Origin: an uncultured Bacteroidales bacterium
GTDB taxonomy: Bacteria; Bacteroidota; Bacteroidia; Bacteroidales; VadinHA17
Length of the DNA stretch: 41,810 bases
Direction of reading: 5' to 3'
Assembly (NCBI GenBank): GCA_937871625.1
Contig: CALMRD010000069.1
Coordinates: 1-41,810 of the forward strand
Every line of letters starts with the position of its first letter. Within the stretch, counting starts at the first letter, position 1. This document shows positions 6,909-41,810 of this stretch, piece after piece. A model generated the notes under the pieces. The model had not been told where the DNA came from. It saw only the letters and a list, made by a program, of their open reading frames with translations, and made no database searches. The position numbers and the translations under genes are program-made.

Positions 6909-7382
6909 TCATTCGTCGAACAGTGAGTTTATCACCCTGTAGACAAGATCACTCTCAAACCCCCTGCCCAGGGCGTGCCTCAGCAGCTTTCCCTTCAGAT
7001 CATACCTGTTCTTTGCCCTGATCTTCCTGCGCTGATCTTCCACCGTCTTTCGCAACAGGGCCATATATTCCTCATCATCAATGGCTTCCAGTCCTGATGC
7101 GATTGCCTCCGGAGACACCTTCTTGTTCCGCAGCCCCATGGTGATCTTCACCTTTCCCCAGTGGCTGTGCCTGAAGTGATCCAGGACAAAAGCCCTGCTG
7201 TACCTCTGCTCGTCGATGAATTTTTCCTTAAGCAGCCGGTTGATAATATGCTCCTGAGTGGTCTCATCCTCTGCTCCCCACCGGTCGAGCATTGCCCTGA
7301 TGTCACTTATGCAGTATTCTCTTCCCGAGCATGCCTTCATGGCCTTCTGAAGCAGCTCCTCCCTGTCAGCTTTGTCTCCCAT
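6909..7382 (-). CDS. recX: RecA regulator RecX
   Basis: 157 aa. Repeated three-helix RecX-like pattern (CSGREYCISDIRAMLDRWG..., IDEQRYSRAFVLDHFRHSHWGKVKI, LLRHALGRGFESDLV). Confidence 0.8.
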   Translation of the reverse strand: MGDKADREELLQKAMKACSGREYCISDIRAMLDRWGAEDETTQEHIINRLLKEKFIDEQRYSRAFVLDHFRHSHWGKVKITMGLRNKKVSPEAIASGLEAIDDEEYMALLRKTVEDQRRKIRAKNRYDLKGKLLRHALGRGFESDLVYRVINSLFDE

Positions 7383-8241
7383 GTCTCACAGCTTTGATAA
7401 ACCTCTCTTTCCCCCTGATATCCCTGATGATGTTTATGCTCTCAAAAATATTACCGTGCAGCAGTGAGGCCGTCTCCTCCGCGAGCTGTTCGTTAACCTC
7501 CAGCCACAGTACACCTCCGGGTACAAGACGGGCATCGGCTATGGCTGCTATGGTGCGGTAGTAGAGCAGAGGGTCGTTGTCAGGCACGAACAGGGCCTCA
7601 TGAGGCTCCCACTCCATGACATTGCGGTGCATGGCGACCATCTCACTCCTCCTCACATAGGGCGGGTTGCTGACTATGATATCACTCACTGGCACCGTCT
7701 CCGGTGCCTGGCTCAGGATGTCAGCAGTGATCAGCTCTACTGAGGTGCCGGTAAGGTTTATGTTGCGTGCTGCAGCCCGCAGTGCTGCGTGTGCATTCTC
7801 TGTAGCCACTACCGTTGCCTCCGGAAAGGCAGCCGACAGTGCGATGGCTATGCACCCTGACCCGGTGCAGAGGTCGGTGACGGTTCCTGAGAAACAGCCG
7901 TTCTCCGCGATGATCATGGCAGTCATCTCTTCTGTCTCAGGCCGGGGTATAAGCACACCGCTCCCTACCTCTATCCTCTGTCCGCAGAAGAGGGTATAGC
8001 CAAGGATATACTGCAGCGGTTCGCCGGCGGCGGCCCGGCCGGCGGCGGCAAGTATCCTTTCCATCTGCTCCTTCTCTGCCGTACGGTCGCCAAAAGCCAG
8101 CTGCGCGCCACGGTTCATTCCGGTGTACTCCAGTATGATGGAGGAGGTCAGGGCCGCGGCCTCCTCCGGGGGCCACAGGCGGCCAAGCATTCGTGAAAGA
8201 TGGCGCTGAATGTCGCTTATTGTTTGTAACTTTTCGGCCAT
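7366..8241 (-). CDS. prmC: Release-factor glutamine N5-methyltransferase PrmC/HemK
   Basis: SAM-binding DLCTGSGCIAI and catalytic NPPY (IIVSNPPYV). Start assigned to MAEKLQTISD (ATG 8241-8239). The 148 upstream codons of track ORF 7366-8685 overlap ribD antisense and look non-proteinaceous. An alternative start at Met18 (8190) is possible. Confidence 0.85.
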   Translation of the reverse strand: MAEKLQTISDIQRHLSRMLGRLWPPEEAAALTSSIILEYTGMNRGAQLAFGDRTAEKEQMERILAAAGRAAAGEPLQYILGYTLFCGQRIEVGSGVLIPRPETEEMTAMIIAENGCFSGTVTDLCTGSGCIAIALSAAFPEATVVATENAHAALRAAARNINLTGTSVELITADILSQAPETVPVSDIIVSNPPYVRRSEMVAMHRNVMEWEPHEALFVPDNDPLLYYRTIAAIADARLVPGGVLWLEVNEQLAEETASLLHGNIFESINIIRDIRGKERFIKAVRHGRQS

Positions 8242-8266
8242 GAACCAAAGATAGGCATTTGCTCTC

Positions 8267-9331
8267 ATGACACACACCGATGACCTGGCCTTCATGCACC
8301 GTTGTCTTGACCTGGCGCGCAATGCAGAGGGAGCCACAGCCCCCAACCCCATGGTGGGGGCGGTGATAGTGCATGACGGCGTGATAATAGGCGAAGGATA
8401 CCACCTTAAGGCAGGCACCCCCCATGCAGAGGTCCATGCCCTCAATGCGGTGAGCGACAAGTCGCTGCTGCCACGGTCAGTGATGTATGTCAGCCTGGAG
8501 CCCTGTTCACACCACGGGCGTACGCCGCCGTGTGCCGATCTGATCATCAGCAGCGGCATACGAAAGGTGGTGGTGGGCTCGCCAGATACCAGCCTCAGGG
8601 TGGCCGGCAGGGGTATAGCACGGCTGCGGGAGGCGGGTGTGGAGGTGATAACAGGGGTGGCAGAGAAGGAGTGCCGTATGATCAACAGGAGGTTCTTTAC
8701 ATGGCATGAGAGAGAGCGTCCCTATGTGATACTTAAATGGGCCCGCAGCGCTGACGGATTCATAGACCTGGTGCGCAAGGCCGATGACCCCGTGGAGCCT
8801 CACTGGATCACCGGCATGACGGAACGGATACTGGTACATCGCTGGCGCGCAGCAGAAGATGCCATCCTCGTCGGGGGAGCCACGGTGCGCGCCGACAACC
8901 CGTCGCTCGACGTGCGCTTCTGGCACGGGAAGAACCCCCTCAGGGTGATAGTAAGCCGCAGCGGTAACATTGACCCGCATTCAAAGGTTCTCGACGGGTC
9001 AACGGAGACACTGCTCTTCACTACAAATGCGGGTCTCAGCCTGCCCGGCGTACAGATAATCAGGCTGACAGGTGAAAACGATTTTATCCGGGAAATACTG
9101 CACACACTTCATGCCATGGATGTGCAGTCGCTCTTCGTCGAAGGCGGATCCTTCATGATACGAAGCTTCATCGAGGCCGGAGCCTGGGATGAGGCCAGAC
9201 GATTCACCGGCATGATGAGCTTCGGCAACGGGGTGCCGGACCCCTGTCCCGGGATGACACCGGAAAAAATGTTCCTTTTTGAGAAAAGTAAACTGGAAAT
9301 TACGTATCATTTTGACGGGAACTCCGTATAA
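8267..9331 (+). CDS. ribD: Bifunctional riboflavin biosynthesis protein RibD (pyrimidine deaminase / uracil reductase)
   Basis: Zinc-deaminase motifs HAEVHAL and PCSHHGRTPPC, followed by a reductase domain (ILVGGATVRADNPSL). Confidence 0.92.
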   Translation: MTHTDDLAFMHRCLDLARNAEGATAPNPMVGAVIVHDGVIIGEGYHLKAGTPHAEVHALNAVSDKSLLPRSVMYVSLEPCSHHGRTPPCADLIISSGIRKVVVGSPDTSLRVAGRGIARLREAGVEVITGVAEKECRMINRRFFTWHERERPYVILKWARSADGFIDLVRKADDPVEPHWITGMTERILVHRWRAAEDAILVGGATVRADNPSLDVRFWHGKNPLRVIVSRSGNIDPHSKVLDGSTETLLFTTNAGLSLPGVQIIRLTGENDFIREILHTLHAMDVQSLFVEGGSFMIRSFIEAGAWDEARRFTGMMSFGNGVPDPCPGMTPEKMFLFEKSKLEITYHFDGNSV

Positions 9332-33555: not shown

Positions 33556-34107
33556 ATGAAGATCCTTGTCACTTATGCCGGCAGTGCAGGTGTGACATCA
33601 AGTGTGGCTTACCGCATTGCCAGAGTGATGACCGGTCTGGGGGCGGAGGTGACGCTGCTGCCCATGAGCGGTGCCAGGACAGTCAAGGGTTTTTCTGCGG
33701 TTGTTGCCGGGAGCATGGAGCAGGGCAGGGGATGGCTGCCGGAGGCGATGGAGTTTGTCAGGGTCAACCAGGCACTGCTGAAGAAGAAGCCCCTGGCGCT
33801 TTTTACAGTCATACCGGCACTGGGGTCCGAGAAGGGAGCCGAGTCGCGCATGGTTATAATGCAATACACGGCTCATGTACGTGGCATGGTCCATCCGGTC
33901 AGTGAAGGGTTCTTCAGCGGTGAGGGTGTCAGAGAAAAGAAGGCTGAACCCGGTGAGAGGTCGAGGTTCAAGCTGAGGATATTGCTCGGACTGTTAAAGG
34001 AGAGCGAGTCGCGCAGTCACGAGGTGGAGACCTGGGCAGCAAGGTTGCATGAGAAGCTGCTGCAGGTCACTGGCAAAGGCGCCAGCGGCCCTCTGCACGG
34101 AGCCTGA
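33556..34107 (+). CDS. Flavodoxin-like fold protein (HemG/flavodoxin-domain family)
   Basis: N-terminus MKILVTYAGSAGVTSSVAYRIARVM resembles the flavodoxin-like phosphate-binding loop. 183 aa. Assignment by eye only. Confidence 0.5.
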   Translation: MKILVTYAGSAGVTSSVAYRIARVMTGLGAEVTLLPMSGARTVKGFSAVVAGSMEQGRGWLPEAMEFVRVNQALLKKKPLALFTVIPALGSEKGAESRMVIMQYTAHVRGMVHPVSEGFFSGEGVREKKAEPGERSRFKLRILLGLLKESESRSHEVETWAARLHEKLLQVTGKGASGPLHGA

Positions 34108-34371
34108 TCAGCCGGGAGAGGACATGCAACTGGTGCGCGTTGCCTGAATTACGACAGATCTCTTGCCACCGGTGCACGTAACCTGATCAACCGTGTGAGG
34201 ACCTGCCACCAAAGCACAGTACATGCATTACCACATAAGTCTGGTCCCGGTCCCCGGGATCTAAATGATCAAGGATATCTCAGATGCAGCTTCACTAGTA
34301 TCGATGAAGATGGTTGCCCTCCTCCCAATGTAGAGTTGCATAAGATTCAGAAGAGGTGAGGCTCTATCCTC

Positions 34372-34812
34372 TCACTTCACCTTAACGTACTTCTCGCTGG
34401 TATAGTTGCTCTTGTCAACCACTCCCAGCTCATCGGCAGGCCATACCTGGATAAGGGTGTCATTCTGAACCACAATCCTCATCCGGAGGGTTTTCCCTTC
34501 ATAGTCTTTGCTGACGTGGTATTTGATCGACTCCTTATACACAATACCTTCCAGCGTATAGGATCCGCCTCCGTAGCTTACAAATTCGGTGGTATCCATG
34601 ATGTAATTACCCATGACCATCCAGTAGTTATTACACCACATTTTAACCCCGCTTCCCTGGTAGTCTCCGGGGAAGGTAGATATGATCGAGTCGTTTTCCA
34701 CCTGTCTGGCATAGATCAGATCCCATGCGCCAACGACAGGATTAACCGGTTCCTGGTTGCATCCGGCAAGGATGAGCAGGAGCAGAGTACCGAAAAATAA
34801 TGTCTTCTTCAT
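34372..34812 (-). CDS. Lipoprotein, lipocalin-like/beta-barrel type
   Basis: Lipobox MKKTLFFGTLLLLILAGC, followed by a GAWDLIY motif typical of lipocalin-like domain lipoproteins. 146 aa. Confidence 0.6.
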   Translation of the reverse strand: MKKTLFFGTLLLLILAGCNQEPVNPVVGAWDLIYARQVENDSIISTFPGDYQGSGVKMWCNNYWMVMGNYIMDTTEFVSYGGGSYTLEGIVYKESIKYHVSKDYEGKTLRMRIVVQNDTLIQVWPADELGVVDKSNYTSEKYVKVK

Positions 34813-35105
34813 AATTTACCTGTTCTTTTGTTATTTTTCATGTTCAAACACTGCTTTCATAGCTTCGTTTTCCTTTTCAACATCGATTTTCTTCTCACAG
34901 GAAGTAAATGCGATGAAGATCATTGCGGAGAATGGCAGCATCCAGTTCTCTATAGTGCTGATTTATTATGTTTGTGCAATACAGTTGAATATGAGTAAAT
35001 TTACGCAAGCAATCAATGCAAGTCAAATTTATTTAACCATGCCATGTCTTTTGTTTAAATTTGAATAGTAATAGCCATTTAGCAAAAACTTAATAGAGAG
35101 GTAAA

Positions 35106-36971
35106 ATGAAAAAGAGTGACACAGCAGTTCTCATGAGCTGCCCGGAAAACAGGCCTGGCAAAAGAAGGTTCTGCCTTAAGGTTTCATTGATTGGTTTTAT
35201 GCTGATAATTCTGTCAGGATTCTTCATGACAGCTCTGTCGCAACCGACCGACATCAGCAAGAAGCTCAAAGGATTTGACCAGTATATGGAAAAGACCCTT
35301 AAGGACTGGAATACACCCGGTGCGTGCGTCGGTATTGTTGTAAAAGACAAGCTTGTCTTTGCAAAGGGATATGGTTACCGGGATTATGGAAAAAAACTGC
35401 CGGTGACTCCCAGTACCCTGTACCAGATTGCTTCAAACACAAAACTATTCACAACCGTAGCATCGGGATTGCTTGTTGAGGAAGCCAAACTGGATTGGGA
35501 TACTCCGGTGAAGAACCTTGTGCCTTCAATAAAATTCTATAATAATGAGCTTGACAACACGGTGACGCTGCGTGACATGCTTGCTCACCGTACGGGTATA
35601 TCAAGGCATGACCTTATCTGGTACAAATCAGATTTCTCGAGAAAAGATCTCTTTGACCGTCTTAAATATCTTGAACCCAGCCAGCCTTTACGGACAGGGT
35701 TTCTATACAACAACCTGATGTACGTCGCCGCAGGATACATTATTGAACTGCAAAGCGGAAAAACATGGGAGCAGTTTGTCCAGGAAAAGATCTTTGATCC
35801 GCTGAAAATGGAGAGGACCTATTTTAAAGTCAGCGATATGGTTGCCGATCCTGATCATGGAGTGCCGTACAATGAAAAACGTGACACAACCATTCTTTAT
35901 GAGATCCCGATTTATGAGGATCAGGCGGCTGTCGGACCTGCCGGATCAATCATCTCAAATATAAATGATATGTCGAAATGGCTTATCGCGCTGATGAATG
36001 GCGGCAGGTATGAGGGCAAGCAGATCATTCCTGAGGCAGTTTTGAAAGCCACGCTGGCACCTTCGATCGCGTTGCCCAACACAGGGCTCGAGAACAAGGG
36101 GTACAAGGAGATTCTGAACAGTGTATACGGTATGGGCAGGCAGATGGCCTCCTACAGGGGCCACCTGCTTGCATTTCACGGAGGGGATCTTCCCGGCTTT
36201 CACTCTCAGATATCGATGATGCCCACAGACAGTATCGGCGTGATCGTGTTTATCATCGGAGACCAGGGCCAGCCTTTATATAACACAATAACCTATAATG
36301 TCTATGAACGCCTTTTAGGTATGGATCTGACGCCCTGGAGCGAGAGGAACCTTGCTGATCGTGACAAGGGAAAGGCTGTCGGCAGGGAAGGGAGGAGCAA
36401 AGCCGGTGAAGACAGGGTTGCAGGTGCAGGACCTTCTCACAAGCTGGCTGATTATGCGGGCGAGTTCGAGCACCCGGCTTACGGGATAATGAAAATCAGT
36501 CTAAAGGCGCCGGATTCTCTGCAATTTGATTTTCATAATATAGTGCTTCCTCTTTCGCACTATCATTATGACCGTTTTGATACGCCAAATGATGAGGAGT
36601 ACGGATTATGGTCGCTGAACTTCATGACCAACCCGGCTGGTGAAATCAGCGGGTTCGTTGTATCTGTTGATGAGGGGCAGGTGACCTTTACCAGAAGGGC
36701 TGACCCCGGCCTCAGCGACCCTGTTGTCCTGCAGGCTTATGAGGGCAAGTATCTCATGGGAGGGACGACATTCACCATCGAGGTAACAGGTAGTGAGATT
36801 TTTATAATCTTACCCGGCACACCGCGTATCAAGCTCATACCTGTCTCAAGAGACACCTTCCGGATAAAGGAATTTGCTGACGTCAGTATCATCTTTGTCC
36901 GTGAGGATGGCATTGTCACCGGGATGAAGCAGAAGGATCCGTCTGGTGAATATGCGGCAAAGAAGCAATAG
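35106..36971 (+). CDS. Serine hydrolase of the beta-lactamase/PBP (class C-like) family with C-terminal beta-rich domain
   Basis: SxxK motif in YQIASNTKLFT and a YxN-like YNN (FLYNNLMY). Has an N-terminal TM/signal (LIGFMLIILSGFFMTALSQP) and a C-terminal extension of about 150 aa. Confidence 0.8.
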   Translation: MKKSDTAVLMSCPENRPGKRRFCLKVSLIGFMLIILSGFFMTALSQPTDISKKLKGFDQYMEKTLKDWNTPGACVGIVVKDKLVFAKGYGYRDYGKKLPVTPSTLYQIASNTKLFTTVASGLLVEEAKLDWDTPVKNLVPSIKFYNNELDNTVTLRDMLAHRTGISRHDLIWYKSDFSRKDLFDRLKYLEPSQPLRTGFLYNNLMYVAAGYIIELQSGKTWEQFVQEKIFDPLKMERTYFKVSDMVADPDHGVPYNEKRDTTILYEIPIYEDQAAVGPAGSIISNINDMSKWLIALMNGGRYEGKQIIPEAVLKATLAPSIALPNTGLENKGYKEILNSVYGMGRQMASYRGHLLAFHGGDLPGFHSQISMMPTDSIGVIVFIIGDQGQPLYNTITYNVYERLLGMDLTPWSERNLADRDKGKAVGREGRSKAGEDRVAGAGPSHKLADYAGEFEHPAYGIMKISLKAPDSLQFDFHNIVLPLSHYHYDRFDTPNDEEYGLWSLNFMTNPAGEISGFVVSVDEGQVTFTRRADPGLSDPVVLQAYEGKYLMGGTTFTIEVTGSEIFIILPGTPRIKLIPVSRDTFRIKEFADVSIIFVREDGIVTGMKQKDPSGEYAAKKQ

Positions 36972-36988
36972 TTGATTTCACTCTACAG

Positions 36989-37014
36989 GGCCACGCCTCA
37001 GCGTGGCCTTTTTT
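36989..37014 (+). terminator. Rho-independent terminator
   Basis: Stem GGCCACGC / GCGTGGCC, loop CTCA, followed by TTTTTT. Confidence 0.9.
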
Positions 37015-37134
37015 ATATATAGCACTCCTCTGGTAGCAGCTTCCCCCGGTGAAGAATCTTCTTTTTCCTATCGTTGATATTTGATGCGGCAAAAGAATTT
37101 TAGAAAAAAGCTTGACTTTTTAAAAGTACTATCT

Positions 37135-37142
37135 TAAATTTG
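37135..37142 (+). promoter_or_regulatory. -7 promoter element TAAATTTG ahead of the HTH gene / GG-peptide locus
   Basis: Matches TAnnTTTG, 28 nt upstream of ATG 37170. It lies inside the TTG-initiated extension of track ORF 37140-37415. Confidence 0.45.
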
Positions 37143-37169
37143 AGATGCTGCATTTTTAAAACTATTCAC

Positions 37170-37415
37170 ATGTCGTTGTCCAAGTACATTGCACGATTGC
37201 AACGGATGGATCTACTAATTGCCTTGAAGGCAACCGGTTCCCCGGAAGCATTTGCCAATAAGATGAACCTCAGCCGAAGCACTCTTTTTGAGACGCTTCA
37301 GGAGATGAAAGGAATGGGTGTTGATATCAGGTATTCCAACATCAGGGAGACATATTATTATGGCGATGCCAGGCGAATAATAGTCAGGGTTGAGAAAGCC
37401 GGTGAGAAACAATGA
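37170..37415 (+). CDS. Small helix-turn-helix protein (putative locus regulator)
   Basis: 81 aa from the first ATG (MSLSKYIARLQRMDLLIALKATGSPEAFANKMNLSRSTLFETLQEMKGMG). Winged-HTH-like pattern with recognition helix LSRSTLFETL. Confidence 0.6.
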   Translation: MSLSKYIARLQRMDLLIALKATGSPEAFANKMNLSRSTLFETLQEMKGMGVDIRYSNIRETYYYGDARRIIVRVEKAGEKQ

Positions 37416-37500
37416 CAGCCCGGACACAACAGTGTGTACCATCCCTTGATGGTGAAGTCATTTGAGAGGCTTGAATTCTAAACAATCAAATTAGAAGGAT

Positions 37501-38157
37501 ATGGTAGAACGACTCTTGTCACTTAAAGGCTGGAAGCTATTTGGCGGAATAGTATTGGTAAATCTGCTCATTCTGTTTTTATCCCAGACAACTCTGATTA
37601 ACGAGATAGTATTCTTCAATACTTACAGTGAACAGCTTACATACGACAGAGCTATGGAGGTATTCAGCCAGATGCGCTCTTTCTCATGGGTCAGTTACAT
37701 CATTGCTCCTATACTTCTACTGCTCAAATTCTCAGTGATGAGTGTACTTCTCTATATCGGGATATTCTTCAGTGACCTTCATAAAGAGATTACCCTGGGG
37801 AAGATATTTAAAGTGGTGATTGCTAGTGAACTGGTGTTTATTGTTGCCTCAATTGTTAAACTATTGTGGTTCATCTTTTTTGCGGGCAACTACACTCTGG
37901 AAGATATGAGCTTCTTCTATCCGCTCTCGTTGATTAATCTGTTTAGCCGGTCGGAGGTAGCCGCTTATTGGATATATCCTCTGCAAACAGTGAATTTTTT
38001 CCAGTTGATTTATATCGTTATGCTTGCACTGGGGCTGTCTAAAATCAGTACAATTAGAAAGGAGGCTGCTGACAAAATTGTGCTTTCCACTTATGTCCCG
38101 GCCATGGCGGTCTGGATTGCACTGGTAATGTTTCTTTCAATTGATGTACAGGCATGA
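37501..38157 (+). CDS. Polytopic membrane protein, Cys-free, family not recognised (Yip1-like topology)
   Basis: 218 aa with about 5-6 hydrophobic helices and no cysteine. Its stop overlaps the next start (ATGA 38154-38157). Confidence 0.65.
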   Translation: MVERLLSLKGWKLFGGIVLVNLLILFLSQTTLINEIVFFNTYSEQLTYDRAMEVFSQMRSFSWVSYIIAPILLLLKFSVMSVLLYIGIFFSDLHKEITLGKIFKVVIASELVFIVASIVKLLWFIFFAGNYTLEDMSFFYPLSLINLFSRSEVAAYWIYPLQTVNFFQLIYIVMLALGLSKISTIRKEAADKIVLSTYVPAMAVWIALVMFLSIDVQA

Positions 38158-38681
38158 AAAAACGGATTGGCAAGGTTTTGCTTGTATTGGTGGGAGGATT
38201 TCTGATCTTTCTTATAGCTGGCATAGTGATAAGAAAAGTAAAAGGGGAGCAAGCTGCTGAGAAAATAAGAACTCTTCCCGTACTTGCTATGAAAGATATC
38301 TGGGGAAATTCCTTCACGACTGAAAAGATACCCTCCGGGCCTCTGTTAATCACCTTTTTCCATCCGGAGTGTGACCACTGCAAATATGAAATATCGTCAC
38401 TTATTAGCACTGATTTGATTGACAGCCAGTTAGCAATACTACTTGTTAGCTATGCTAAGGTTGATGATATTCAGTCTTTTATACAAGAAGTTGGGAATAT
38501 TGATGCATTAAACATGCATATCCTGCATGATCCTGATTTCAGGATGAGTGATCTGTACAGAGCCGACATCCTTCCGTCAAACTTCATTTACAATAAGGAG
38601 CTTAAGCTTGTAAAAGTATTCAAGGGGGCAACCAAGCCGGAGACCATCATGAAATACCTGAATGGGAATGATAAAGATTAA
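38154..38681 (+). CDS. Membrane-anchored thioredoxin-fold thiol:disulfide oxidoreductase (TlpA/redoxin-like, CDHC active site)
   Basis: N-terminal TM VLLVLVGGFLIFLIAGIVI, then a redoxin core with LLITFFHPECDHCKYE (CxxC). 175 aa. Confidence 0.8.
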   Translation: MKKRIGKVLLVLVGGFLIFLIAGIVIRKVKGEQAAEKIRTLPVLAMKDIWGNSFTTEKIPSGPLLITFFHPECDHCKYEISSLISTDLIDSQLAILLVSYAKVDDIQSFIQEVGNIDALNMHILHDPDFRMSDLYRADILPSNFIYNKELKLVKVFKGATKPETIMKYLNGNDKD

Positions 38682-40854
38682 GAGGGTTAAAGAAGCATCA
38701 TTGCTTCAGCACGACTCCACCGATTGTGGTGCGGCTTGTCTGGCATCTGTAATCAGGTATTTCGGCGGAGAGTCCGGAATAGAAAAAATTCGCAGGCTTA
38801 GTGGTACAACTCAGTCAGGAACTACGATGCTGGGATTATATCAGGCTGCACGCGAATCTGGTATGGAGGCTACTGGTTATGAGGCTTCCGTGAATGATAT
38901 TAAGGAATTCAATGGTATTCTAATTCTGCATGTGACTCCGGAACCTGGATATGAGCATTATATCGTCTCTTATGGTTTCTATGATGGCAGGTTTGTCGTC
39001 TGGGATCCTGCAAAAGGTTTGGAGTTAAAGACAGCATCGGAAGTTGAAAAGATTTGGGCGAGTCATAAATGTCTTGCAGTCAGTCCGGGCAAAGATTTTG
39101 TCCTGGAGAAAGTATCAAAAAGAAGTAAACGCAGGTGGATAGTTGATACAATTATGCCGGAGTACGAATTACTCCTGGTCAGTGTTGTCGTAGGTATAGT
39201 CATTTCACTGCTCGGTGTTGTAATGGCAGTCTATACGCAAAAGTTACTTGACCGGATTCTCCCTTCAGGTGATGTGAGAATGCTTGTTGTTTCAGTGGCA
39301 TTGGTGTTTCTGCTTCTTGGGGTTAGGGTTCTGCTGACTGCAGTCCGACAATCCATGTTATTGTCTCAGGGAAAGACTTACAACATCCGTGTTGTTGACG
39401 GATTTTACAGTTCATTGCTGGGATTGCCGAAGCCGTTTTTTGATACCAGAAAAACCGGCGACATGGTTGCCCGACTTAACGACACCATGCGAATCCAGCG
39501 TGTCATCTCCGACGTGGTCAGCACCTATGTGATCGATTTTCTGATTGTGATGATTACAATGGTCATGATCTTCATTTATTCTTCTGTTGCAGGCATTATT
39601 TCAGCTTTAGCAATTCCTCTCTTTTTTCTGCTGGTTTACAGTTGGAACAAGCCGGTTATCAAATCGCAGCAGGACCTCATGGCAGGTTATGCCATGAATG
39701 AAAGCAATTTCATAAATACTCTCAGGGGCATTACGGAGATCAAGAGCATGCAATGGCAGCGTTATTATGAGAAAAAAAATAAATCGGTATTCACTATTTT
39801 TCAGGAGAGGGCTTTCTCATTGGGGAAGATCAAAATAAAGCTTGGGATGATTACAAACCTTGCAGGCACTCTATACCTGATGGGGTTATTAATGTACACT
39901 TCGCTTGAGGTAATGGAGATGCGGATGACTCAGGGCGAACTGATGGCTATCATTTCACTTAGCTCTGCCCTGCTGCCGTCAGTGATGAACCTGGCTCTCG
40001 TCTCCATTCCTCTGAGCGAGGCTAAGGTCGCTATCGAAAGAATGTTTGAATTCACGCAGTTACAGCCGGAAGAGCCTGATGAAAAAACAGAAAAGCCAGG
40101 ATTACCTTTTTCCCGGATTACACTTGACAGCATTACCTTTCGGTTCCCCGGTCAGAAGTTACTTCTTTCTGATGTGAACCTTGAGATTGAAAAAGGTACT
40201 GCAACTGCTTTGGTAGGGGAGTCGGGTTCGGGTAAGAGTACTCTGGTAAACATTCTGATGAGATTTTACCAGCCGGAGTCAGGCTCTGTAAAGGTTAATG
40301 ATGAGACGCCTTGTCAGGATGTGCCGCTCGATTGCTGGCGAAGGTCGATAGGTCTGATTCCACAGGAAATTCATCTTTTCAATGGCACAGTATTGGAGAA
40401 TGTTGTACCTGATGCTGATGAGGATAAAATCAGGAAGTTGGGCAGTCTGATCATTGAATACGGGCTTGAGCCTTTCATAAAAAGCCTGCCCCTGGGTTTT
40501 GCTACCTTAACTGGCGAAGATGGTGTCAAATTATCTGGCGGGCAAAAGCAGGTTATTGCATTCATGAGGGCCTTGATCAATGATCCGGAAATTCTTCTTA
40601 TTGATGAAGGCACCTCCGGGATGGACCGGGACACGGAAGCTATTTTTCTCAAGATTCTGATGCGATTGAAAGGATCTATTGGCATATTGTTGGTTACCCA
40701 CCGGATAAATATTATAAGAAAGTTATGTGACAGGGTTTACCTGCTTGAGGGAGGTGCTATTTCAGACTCAGGCACGCATAATGAGCTTTTAATGAATGAT
40801 AACCTCTACAGAAGATATTGGGAGGAATTTGATTTGGCGGGGGCGATCAGATGA
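38662..40854 (+). CDS. Peptidase-C39-domain ABC transporter (PCAT; double-glycine leader processing exporter)
   Basis: C39 catalytic Cys in LQHDSTDCGAACLASV, with a His/Asp region (EHYIVSYG ... VWDP). Six-TM ABC membrane domain. Walker A GESGSGKST, signature LSGGQKQ, Walker B ILLIDE, H-loop LVTHR. Overlaps the previous gene by 20 nt. Confidence 0.92.
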   Translation: MGMIKIKRVKEASLLQHDSTDCGAACLASVIRYFGGESGIEKIRRLSGTTQSGTTMLGLYQAARESGMEATGYEASVNDIKEFNGILILHVTPEPGYEHYIVSYGFYDGRFVVWDPAKGLELKTASEVEKIWASHKCLAVSPGKDFVLEKVSKRSKRRWIVDTIMPEYELLLVSVVVGIVISLLGVVMAVYTQKLLDRILPSGDVRMLVVSVALVFLLLGVRVLLTAVRQSMLLSQGKTYNIRVVDGFYSSLLGLPKPFFDTRKTGDMVARLNDTMRIQRVISDVVSTYVIDFLIVMITMVMIFIYSSVAGIISALAIPLFFLLVYSWNKPVIKSQQDLMAGYAMNESNFINTLRGITEIKSMQWQRYYEKKNKSVFTIFQERAFSLGKIKIKLGMITNLAGTLYLMGLLMYTSLEVMEMRMTQGELMAIISLSSALLPSVMNLALVSIPLSEAKVAIERMFEFTQLQPEEPDEKTEKPGLPFSRITLDSITFRFPGQKLLLSDVNLEIEKGTATALVGESGSGKSTLVNILMRFYQPESGSVKVNDETPCQDVPLDCWRRSIGLIPQEIHLFNGTVLENVVPDADEDKIRKLGSLIIEYGLEPFIKSLPLGFATLTGEDGVKLSGGQKQVIAFMRALINDPEILLIDEGTSGMDRDTEAIFLKILMRLKGSIGILLVTHRINIIRKLCDRVYLLEGGAISDSGTHNELLMNDNLYRRYWEEFDLAGAIR

Positions 40855-41052
40855 TGGGTTTGCCGTCACTCTGTGGAACGGCAAGAGGTAATGAAAAAAA
40901 AAGAGATGAGGTCAAAAAAACTACACCAATCCTGTATTATTGGACTGCCCGGTTTTTATTTTGAAAGTGCCGACCGGTTTTCGAAACCATCGTCGGCAGG
41001 CCGATACCGAAAAGCCTGAAATAGAGTAGGTGTAAGAAAAACATGTCTCGCT

Positions 41053-41268
41053 ATGAAAGAATTAAACTTTGACCAGATGGAGGTTACTAATGGAGGTTCA
41101 GTTATCAAAGTCGTGGGATGTACGATAGGATCGATCCTTCTTGTTTCTGCTTTTGCATCTTTGTTTGCCCTTACGGCAGGAGCCGGAGCAATAGCTATTG
41201 CAGCTGCTGCTACTGGAGCATCACTTAGTCCTGCTGGTTGGGGGCTTGCTTGTTTTACGCAATATTGA
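41053..41268 (+). CDS. Double-glycine-leader precursor peptide (bacteriocin-like); predicted cleavage after Gly15 gives a 56-aa hydrophobic core
   Basis: MKELNFDQMEVTNGG|SVIKVVGCTIGSILLVSAFASLFALTAGAGAIAIAAAATGASLSPAGWGLACFTQY. The leader fits the CFB-type LNxxQMxxIxGG pattern. Lies directly downstream of the PCAT gene on the same strand. Confidence 0.75.
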   Translation: MKELNFDQMEVTNGGSVIKVVGCTIGSILLVSAFASLFALTAGAGAIAIAAAATGASLSPAGWGLACFTQY

Positions 41269-41313
41269 TTAAATATTTATGTTTTAAGTTTGAAAGATTA
41301 ATAAGAGACAAAA

Positions 41314-41538
41314 ATGAATAAATTGTTAAGAAGGGACGTACTAAGTATAGCCTTTATTCTGAGCCTGATTGTTTTTGGAGTATCGATTGTGGTATCTGCA
41401 GCCTATGATCTATCTCCAAAAGGCAGGCTGGTATTCTTAATAATCACGATCGCCTCTTTCTTTTCAAGCCTTTCCTCAATTCTGCAGTTAAGAGCAAGAA
41501 GACAGAGATTCGACAGTGAAGAAAAAGCTAGACCATAA
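41314..41538 (+). CDS. 74-aa two-TM mini-protein (candidate immunity protein)
   Basis: Two hydrophobic helices (LSIAFILSLIVFGVSIVVSAA, LVFLIITIASFFSSLSSIL) and a basic C-terminal tail. Lies 45 nt downstream of the precursor gene. Confidence 0.55.
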   Translation: MNKLLRRDVLSIAFILSLIVFGVSIVVSAAYDLSPKGRLVFLIITIASFFSSLSSILQLRARRQRFDSEEKARP

Positions 41539-41595
41539 GTTCCATCCTTCTACAGCAGTTTACTCTTTGCTGAAACTCGGTGGGTCGTTAAAACT

Positions 41596-41627
41596 ACGGG
41601 AGGGTTTAATAATATTTACCCTCCTGT
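41596..41627 (+). terminator. Hairpin, possible terminator closing the GG-peptide locus
   Basis: Stem ACGGGAGGGT / ACCCTCCTGT (10 bp including one G-U), 12-nt AT loop, followed by a weak T-tract (CTTATT). Confidence 0.45.
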
Positions 41628-41810
41628 CTTATTAGGACTATCTTCATATTTTAGCTTTCTAACACTGACTGGGATTAATGAATTTGCTTCTTAAGCCCAA
41701 CTTGGGACTGTCCAAATCAGTGTGTCCAATATGTCCTTTTAGTTGCCATTTTCAAGTGTCGATTAGGGGGTGCGAGCACAATTGTCATCCGTCTAAATAA
41801 GAGAAATATA

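Follow-up and report, generated by a model that had tools for sequence, protein, structure and literature searches.

A probable bacteroidetocin-type peptide production locus without a dedicated HlyD partner in an uncultured Bacteroidales bacterium

The stretch of DNA analysed here, referred to as the window, comprises 41,810 nucleotides and is the entire contig C69 (CALMRD010000069.1) of a genome of an uncultured Bacteroidales bacterium of the VadinHA17 lineage (G000, GCA_937871625.1; 411 contigs, 3.48 Mb, 93% complete). Close to its 3′ end, on the forward strand, lie three overlapping genes for a putative peptide export system. The first encodes a 218-amino-acid (aa) cysteine-free protein with five transmembrane (TM) segments (37501..38157; open reading frame (ORF) list and hydrophobic segments), the second a 175-aa TM-anchored thioredoxin-like protein with a CDHC motif (38154..38681; AhpC-TSA match), and the third a 730-aa exporter combining a C39 peptidase with an ATP-binding cassette (ABC) transporter (38662..40854; Pfam domains), with overlaps of 4 nt between the TM and redoxin genes and 20 nt between the redoxin and exporter genes, just as a preliminary description of the locus, based on its letters, had presented this trio. 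Downstream, a 71-aa precursor peptide with a double-glycine (GG) leader (41053..41268, plus strand) was read directly from the ORFs, as was a 74-aa protein with two hydrophobic segments (41314..41538, plus strand), and the contig ends at 41810, 956 bases past the 3′ end of the exporter gene. Neither of these two downstream genes is named in the preliminary description; both form part of the locus. Such a four-part architecture has already been published for the bacteroidetocins, for which class IIf was proposed (Coyne et al. 2019, PMC6671954; this and the other articles are cited here for the parts consulted), and it is quite likely that the present genes form a bacteroidetocin-type (class IIf-like) production locus that has no dedicated HlyD partner.

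All three domains of the exporter score above their Pfam cut-offs (C39, 90.3 bits; ABC_membrane, 108.6; ABC_tran, 102.2), and the best NCBIfam model is TIGR01193 (peptide cleavage/export ABC transporter) with 370.3 bits, below its cut-off of 523.85. By domain make-up the protein falls among the peptidase-containing ABC transporters (PCATs), and it stands outside the curated TIGR01193 subfamily. The peptidase appears to be active, judging by its C39 catalytic residues: across 21 aligned exporters, H99 and D115 never vary, and Q16 and C22 vary hardly at all. Residues 9-723 match the solved structure of PCAT1 (4ry2) over its full length (E 9.6e-103).

The redoxin gives an AhpC-TSA match of 35.1 bits (cut-off 26) and has a single N-terminal TM segment (residues 8-26), and its C73 and C76 (the CDHC motif) and cis-proline P141 are invariant among 14 sequences. 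Among solved structures it comes closest to ResA and to putative thioredoxins (E 2.5e-6 to 1e-2), and the ResA equivalog model of NCBIfam is matched with 29.9 bits against a cut-off of 170; judged from these comparisons, it would be a TlpA/ResA-like anchored thiol-disulfide oxidoreductase and not a ResA orthologue. No match to DsbB or VKOR was obtained in the source genome at its 93% completeness; one DsbD-type gene and one MauE-type gene occur elsewhere in it, the sole MauE copy lying at a contig edge (C74:76-474, minus strand) beside thymidylate kinase and housekeeping genes. MauE/DoxX-type membrane proteins, possible redox partners, were also seen inside two distant loci that carry relatives of the 218-aa protein (L056:11690-12151 and L070:7607-8023, both on the minus strand), in L070 adjoining the redoxin gene.

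The 218-aa protein contains no cysteine and five hydrophobic segments, and it matches no family in Pfam or NCBIfam. An AF2 model based on an alignment of 70 diverse relatives shows five long helices (predicted local distance difference test (pLDDT) 96, predicted TM-score (pTM) 0.89). A Foldseek search of this model against the PDB returned nothing at E<=0.001 (best E 6.2), and a wide VIA-align search with it gave a best Z of 6.8, which is below the meaningful level for helical bundles, so that no solved relative was found in either search. Several observations point to the Yip1 domain (PF04893): nine of the 70 relatives match it (best E 1.5e-4), though the window protein itself does not; a distant member of the family exceeds its cut-off (33.4 vs 28.6 bits); 17% of the members of the nearest ESM Atlas cluster carry it; and UniRef labels some relatives as Yip1 domain-containing. 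The 218-aa protein is therefore probably a distant Yip1-domain protein. The preliminary description had reasoned that it is not a reoxidant of the DsbB/VKOR type, and the relatives agree, since they have no conserved cysteine; a role as redox partner was likewise rejected, with no cysteine in the protein itself and no alignment column above 40% cysteine among the 70 relatives. The residues that are conserved in this family (hereafter the TM family) are K76, E110, an F139-P141-S143 stretch and Y159-P160-N165-F167-E168. By our own reading of the positive-inside rule, the F139-P141-S143 and Y159-P160-N165-F167-E168 groups may lie near the outer end of helix 4, on the side of the peptide and the redoxin domain.

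The TM family comprises 862 clusters at 50% identity (E<=1e-3). Its profile was matched in 37 of 401 Bacteroidota genomes (G000 counted) and 29 of 180 genera, and in 17 of 401 Bacteroidales genomes, again with G000 included. Among the other 16 Bacteroidales genomes, the exporter was found within 1.5-kb flanks in 12, and two more are cut by a contig end right after the redoxin gene. The gene order was examined in 17 loci from Bacteroidales metagenome-assembled genomes, where a helix-turn-helix (HTH) gene, the TM gene and the redoxin gene follow each other in every case (17/17), and the exporter is visible in 16, two of which are cut by the contig end, while L019 stops inside the redoxin gene. 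In 13 of the 17 the locus occupies the same chromosomal site, with mutL adjoining, and the TM proteins of these close relatives are 47-94% identical. In the close loci the exporter gene is followed by one or two genes for GG-leader peptides and then by genes for several small membrane proteins; farther downstream a TonB-dependent receptor is found and, in some, the beta subunit of oxaloacetate decarboxylase or a YhcG nuclease. The redoxin and exporter matches are fragmented across frames in L020:10848-13369 and L021:10702-13344, which may be decayed copies or reflect indel errors of assembly.

The linkage extends well beyond close relatives. We collected 20 distant TM-family loci with 8-kb flanks, and a C39-ABC gene lies within two genes of the TM gene in 15 of them; a thioredoxin-like gene adjoins in 10 of these 15 (one slightly below the Pfam cut-off), and GG-leader peptides with at least two cysteines are encoded nearby in 12 of the 20. 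One example is the Flammeovirga pectinis plasmid NZ_CP034564.1, where the genes are annotated in turn as hypothetical, redoxin and ABC transporter. The association of both accessory proteins with PCAT genes, which had been proposed from the window alone, is thus borne out across lineages. A paralogous branch of the TM family was also observed (L062:8030-8662, L064:7956-8585, L065:7965-8606), in which the TM gene adjoins an approximately 980-aa TMEM260-like O-mannosyltransferase gene and polysaccharide genes; these three loci belong to the family f15, where the TM profile was matched in all 12 sampled genomes.

According to the preliminary description, neither a HlyD-type membrane-fusion protein (MFP) nor a TolC-type outer-membrane factor (OMF) is encoded at the locus or elsewhere in the window, and dedicated searches confirm this. 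Pfam analysis detected no HlyD or OEP family in the eight ORFs around the locus or in 25 large ORFs from elsewhere in the window. A local hidden Markov model (HMM) was also built from 19 HlyD proteins that adjoin other Bacteroidota C39-ABC exporters; it recovered its positive controls in 3/3 contigs and 20/20 loci. Neither the full set of six-frame ORFs of the window nor contig C388 contained a match to it, and the same was true of the 256 kb covered by the 17 close loci and the 322 kb covered by the 20 distant ones, in whose 226 ORFs Pfam likewise found neither HlyD nor OEP. The sole local-HMM match near a TM-family gene, in L088, belongs to a MacB/FtsX-HlyD pump without a C39 exporter and was discarded. 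Genes lying just past the contig end were a further concern. Contig C388, in reversed orientation, is 87% identical over 4.6 kb to the region downstream of the exporter in the closest relative, and it encodes small TM proteins, a TonB-dependent receptor, DUF4249 and CreD, with no HlyD or OEP; since C388 continues the synteny, no such gene stands just beyond the break, as far as synteny tells, and the 17 syntenic relatives agree.

This absence gains weight from a comparison with other exporters of the phylum. C39 domains were detected in 44 of 151 sampled genomes, and the 20 best-scoring full-length C39-ABC genes outside G000 and outside the TM-type loci served as a comparison set. HlyD adjoins the exporter in all 20 (19 by Pfam HlyD_3, the twentieth by the local HMM), OEP adjoins as well in six, and the TM protein was found beside none. 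A quick maximum-likelihood tree of 20 TM-linked and 20 HlyD-linked exporters divides them by one branch (Shimodaira-Hasegawa-like approximate likelihood ratio test (SH-aLRT) 99). Across the sampled Bacteroidota genomes, either HlyD or a Yip1-like protein adjoins a C39-ABC exporter, never both, and the absence of HlyD from TM-type loci is systematic and unusual for the phylum. No paper describing this split appeared among the best-ranked literature matches. A further C39-ABC exporter of the source genome (727 aa, contig C221, L001:7388-9571, plus strand) is flanked by genes for a TPR-CHAT protein (1050 aa) and a DUF349 protein (817 aa); on the tree it falls with the HlyD-linked exporters, yet no HlyD was seen in the 15 kb examined.

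Of the competing explanations, the one that survives best is conventional tripartite type I secretion, with an MFP and OMF encoded elsewhere acting in trans and with the TM protein and redoxin as maturation helpers only. The genome-wide search does provide candidate genes, namely matches to HlyD_3 (10, on eight contigs) and to OEP (21, on 10 contigs), all on contigs other than C69 and C388; TolC is unlinked to the microcin exporters in E. coli (PMC12219008); and the assembly is both fragmented and incomplete (411 contigs, 93%). However, HlyD always adjoins the exporter in the 20 comparison loci, which makes its absence from the 37 TM-type loci a systematic feature, the TM-linked exporters form a separate branch, no contig of the source genome carries both a C39 match and a HlyD_3 match, and four genes sufficed in E. 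coli, a host without the cognate MFP (PMC6671954). We therefore regard in-trans assembly as unlikely and favour a production locus without its own HlyD. Proteins with an outer-membrane beta-barrel or a CarboxypepD_reg domain are repeatedly encoded close to TM-type loci, in the same clade and in three distant ones (L072:3440-5860, minus strand; L055:1964-4204; L071:8966-9907; L091:15466-16642); they are outer-membrane candidates, whose placement is too inconsistent to count them as part of the system.

The cargo of the system appears to be very hydrophobic. The precursor has a 15-residue double-glycine leader ending in TNGG, and the predicted mature part is a 56-residue, Ala/Gly-rich peptide with a grand average of hydropathy (GRAVY) of about 1.45 and two cysteines, one near each end. 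L012 encodes a homologue, 56% identical, on the 3′ side of its exporter gene. Taken together, the window and 10 relatives encode 15 GG-leader peptides immediately downstream, with two or three cysteines, Ala/Gly-rich mature parts of 46-56 residues and GRAVY values of 0.9-1.5, and their sequences are variable. The 74-aa protein that follows the peptide gene is above cut-off for no Pfam family, and in L012 and L020 relatives of it are encoded after the peptide genes. It may be considered a candidate immunity protein, and small TM genes that follow the peptide genes are in general likely to serve immunity. Some TM-type loci also carry peptide-modifying genes: a glycosyltransferase gene lies between redoxin and exporter in L060 (6012-7505, minus strand), and a LanC-family gene and a glycosyltransferase gene lie downstream in the Flammeovirga plasmid locus (L091:12565-15436). 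The TM-type export set may thus serve modified peptides too.

Such extreme hydrophobicity invites the proposal that the peptides are not secreted toxins at all but stay in the envelope of the producer, in the outer leaflet of the inner membrane or the periplasm, for signalling or a membrane function, and it is consistent with this that the whole clade keeps the locus in stable chromosomal synteny, unlike a strain-specific island, and that no outer-membrane route is encoded. On the other hand, hypervariable cargo combined with conserved machinery, multiple peptide genes and small TM genes are the usual marks of bacteriocin loci, and the published members of this architecture are diffusible toxins (PMC6671954; PMC8546649). 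Retention in the envelope is accordingly a shade less plausible to us than in-trans assembly, and export of a bacteriocin remains the preferred reading of the cargo genes.

What the 218-aa protein does in such an export locus can be approached by structure prediction. When the TM protein was modelled together with a dimer made of exporter residues 150-470, the prediction scored 0.42 (0.45, 0.42 and 0.38 in the individual runs), and none of three controls exceeded 0.00; at least 93% of the contacts were common to all runs, and the pLDDT of the partner was at least 71. In the calibration of this score, 116 of 157 solved complexes reached the mark, as did 2 of 215 mismatched pairs, and at scores of 0.60 or below, where the present value lies, 18 of the 157 solved complexes passed and both passing mismatches fell in the same range. 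The model thus hints that the TM protein binds the membrane domain of the exporter. Together with the linkage data, it suggests that the five-helix protein may be an accessory subunit of the exporter, a role on which our opinion is evenly divided.

The preliminary description had also listed immunity among the possible roles of this protein, and indeed it is polytopic, operon-encoded and without an enzyme signature, and membrane immunity proteins are common in bacteriocin loci; but an immunity or receptor-blocking protein outside the export machinery is hardly probable, given that expression of the TM protein or of the oxidoreductase of the bacteroidetocin B region gives a sensitive strain no protection whereas deletion of the TM, thiol oxidoreductase or peptide gene attenuates toxin activity (PMC6671954), that the TM proteins of close relatives are far more conserved than the hypervariable peptides, that separate small TM genes lie 3′ of the peptides and ABC-2-type candidate immunity transporters lie 3′ of the peptide genes in distant loci, and that the partner exporters form one branch together with the TM protein.

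Under the reading of an exporter complex that works without HlyD, the following route can be proposed. The C39 domain, whose domain context and residues are in place, would cut off the 15-residue leader as the exporter transports the peptide through the inner membrane. In the absence of an attached MFP, the peptide should emerge at the periplasmic face, where the anchored CxxC redoxin would join its two cysteines, and the 218-aa protein, as an accessory subunit on the membrane domain of the exporter, would aid release or hand-over of the hydrophobic cargo. That the peptide is released into the periplasm for oxidation, as had been suggested from the window, is a reasonable inference in view of the placement of the redoxin domain outside the membrane and the lack of a DsbB or VKOR match in the source genome. 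Passage across the outer membrane, if it occurs, would be a separate step, for which lysis, vesicles or an unlinked channel are options. A broader proposal is that the Yip1-like proteins are an unrecognised class of PCAT accessory proteins that replaces HlyD in diderm Bacteroidota, that these bacteria use a two-step route (export to the periplasmic face and disulfide formation by an anchored thioredoxin, followed by separate outer-membrane passage), and that bacterial Yip1 proteins are perhaps wider partners of ABC transporters; we put this forward tentatively, as something that could be true but is less probable than its opposite.

Several points weigh against these conclusions. Five of the 20 distant TM-family loci have no exporter (three are beside a TMEM260-like glycosyltransferase gene, one is beside a gene for a 1142-aa protein of no family, and one is alone), and a Yip1-positive distant member (L142:6226-6915, minus strand) stands in an operon-like row with a HlyD protein and a MacB/FtsX permease (6941-8014 and 8014-9225). 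The TM family is therefore not exclusive to PCATs, and the row in L142 hints at bacterial Yip1-like proteins being companions of further kinds of ABC exporter. The comparison loci are top-scoring C39 matches and not a random sample, and the exporter tree came from a quick search; its groups were defined by their neighbours, and relatives share labels. The complex prediction used a set-up other than the calibrated one, with our own alignments and two copies of one domain. The unlinked HlyD and OEP genes of the source genome could act in trans. VKOR-thioredoxin fusions adjoin three of the 20 HlyD-type exporters, and hence the need for oxidation alone cannot explain the missing HlyD. Furthermore, the window cargo (56 residues, two cysteines, very hydrophobic) differs from bacteroidetocins A and B, which have 42 residues and four cysteines and are somewhat basic (PMC6671954), and the homology of the 218-aa protein to the published TM proteins is proposed from architecture, taxa and similar divergence. 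The fusions just mentioned are 506-544 aa long, combine VKOR with Thioredoxin_4 and lie just upstream of the HlyD-linked exporters (L122:1618-3252, L127:2516-4102, L129:2689-4209); they are a different disulfide solution in HlyD-type loci.

The setting of the locus within the window also deserves description. Upstream, a terminator-like hairpin followed by a T-run (36987..37010, plus strand; 10-pair stem, 7 GC) stands 3′ of a beta-lactamase-family gene and likely marks the 5′ boundary of the export locus. Between it and the TM gene, a small putative DNA-binding protein is encoded (37140..37415, plus strand; 91 aa if translation starts at TTG, about 81 aa if it starts at the ATG of 37170), which matches Pfam HTH_11 weakly (E 0.0089; 16.3 bits, where the cut-off is 25); an HTH gene lies upstream of the TM gene in all 17 related loci by tblastn, and this protein is a candidate regulator. 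The beta-lactamase-family protein (621 aa, with DUF3471; 35106-36971, plus strand) is encoded between a lipoprotein gene and the export locus, and of the 18 syntenic loci only four carry it (those of the window, L009, L018 and L020), which points to an insertion or deletion in a conserved neighbourhood. The G+C content drops from about 0.56 to 0.41-0.45 across the last 7 kb (34000-41810); as the same chromosomal site is nevertheless kept in 13 of 17 relatives, the locus appears to be an old resident of deviant composition and not a recent island.

Among known systems, the class II microcins and colicin V (CvaB PCAT, CvaA MFP and TolC), together with the HlyD-linked PCATs of Bacteroidota, resemble the present system in the C39 domain, transmembrane domain and nucleotide-binding domain of the exporter and in their GG-leader substrates. 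In contrast to the colicin V type, the window locus and its relatives have no MFP or OMF gene; a Yip1-like TM protein is encoded instead, in most cases together with a thioredoxin-like one. PCAT1 of Clostridium thermocellum (4ry2, 6v9z, 8vp3) and ComA share with the window exporter the full-length match and the conserved Cys, His and Asp of the C39 site, whereas PCAT1 belongs to a monoderm host and its structures were solved without an accessory membrane protein; PCAT1 is not known to have a Yip1-like partner. Gram-positive bacteriocin loci also pair PCATs with thiol-disulfide oxidoreductases, as in sunT-bdbA-bdbB of sublancin and the accessory protein PedC of pediocin, and the likeness is that a dedicated thioredoxin-like enzyme adjoins the PCAT of a disulfide-containing peptide. 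The hosts of these loci have no outer membrane, however, and BdbB is a cysteine-containing reoxidant of the DsbB type, unlike the cysteine-free 218-aa protein.

The closest counterparts are the bacteroidetocins. The window locus has four of the features that characterize class IIf: a precursor peptide whose GG leader is within the 15-16 residues of the class and whose mature part has two cysteines, the minimum for it, a C39-ABC exporter, an adjoining thiol oxidoreductase gene and a five-TM protein. The same gene set has been tabulated for 35 genomes in four classes, with the oxidoreductase present in most, not all, and consecutive locus tags for TM protein, oxidoreductase and ABC transporter occur in several of them, for example in Flavobacterium sp. 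ABG, Chryseobacterium limigenitum and Nubsella (PMC6671954). The published TM proteins are 24-44% similar to one another (PMC6671954, supplement 4); named matches of our TM-family searches include Flavobacterium, Emticicia and Leptobacterium, and none of the strains given in the consulted parts of that article was among the matches listed. Differences concern the order of genes, as the peptide gene of the Bacteroides regions lies between the TM and oxidoreductase genes and that of the window after the exporter; the length of the cargo, 42-48 residues in the published peptides vs 56; and the setting, with a conserved chromosomal site and upstream HTH gene in the window and a mobile element for the bacteroidetocin regions (PMC6671954). 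Functionally, the four bacteroidetocin genes were sufficient in E. coli, Bacteroides is described by the authors as having no general disulfide machinery, active outer-membrane passage was in their words not demonstrated and lysis possible, and HlyD goes unmentioned in the article (term count 0; PMC6671954). BamA was identified in 2021 by the same group as the target of bacteroidetocin A (PMC8546649). While the gene set was thus already in print, the architecture is shown here to reach uncultured Bacteroidales, in which it occupies a stable chromosomal site and serves fast-changing, very hydrophobic cargo. What the present analysis adds to the published picture is the mutual exclusivity of HlyD and the TM protein and a weak computational hint that the latter binds the exporter; the split turns the role of the TM protein, and the way in which such peptides leave a two-membrane cell, into a testable hypothesis and offers a first functional lead for bacterial Yip1-domain proteins.

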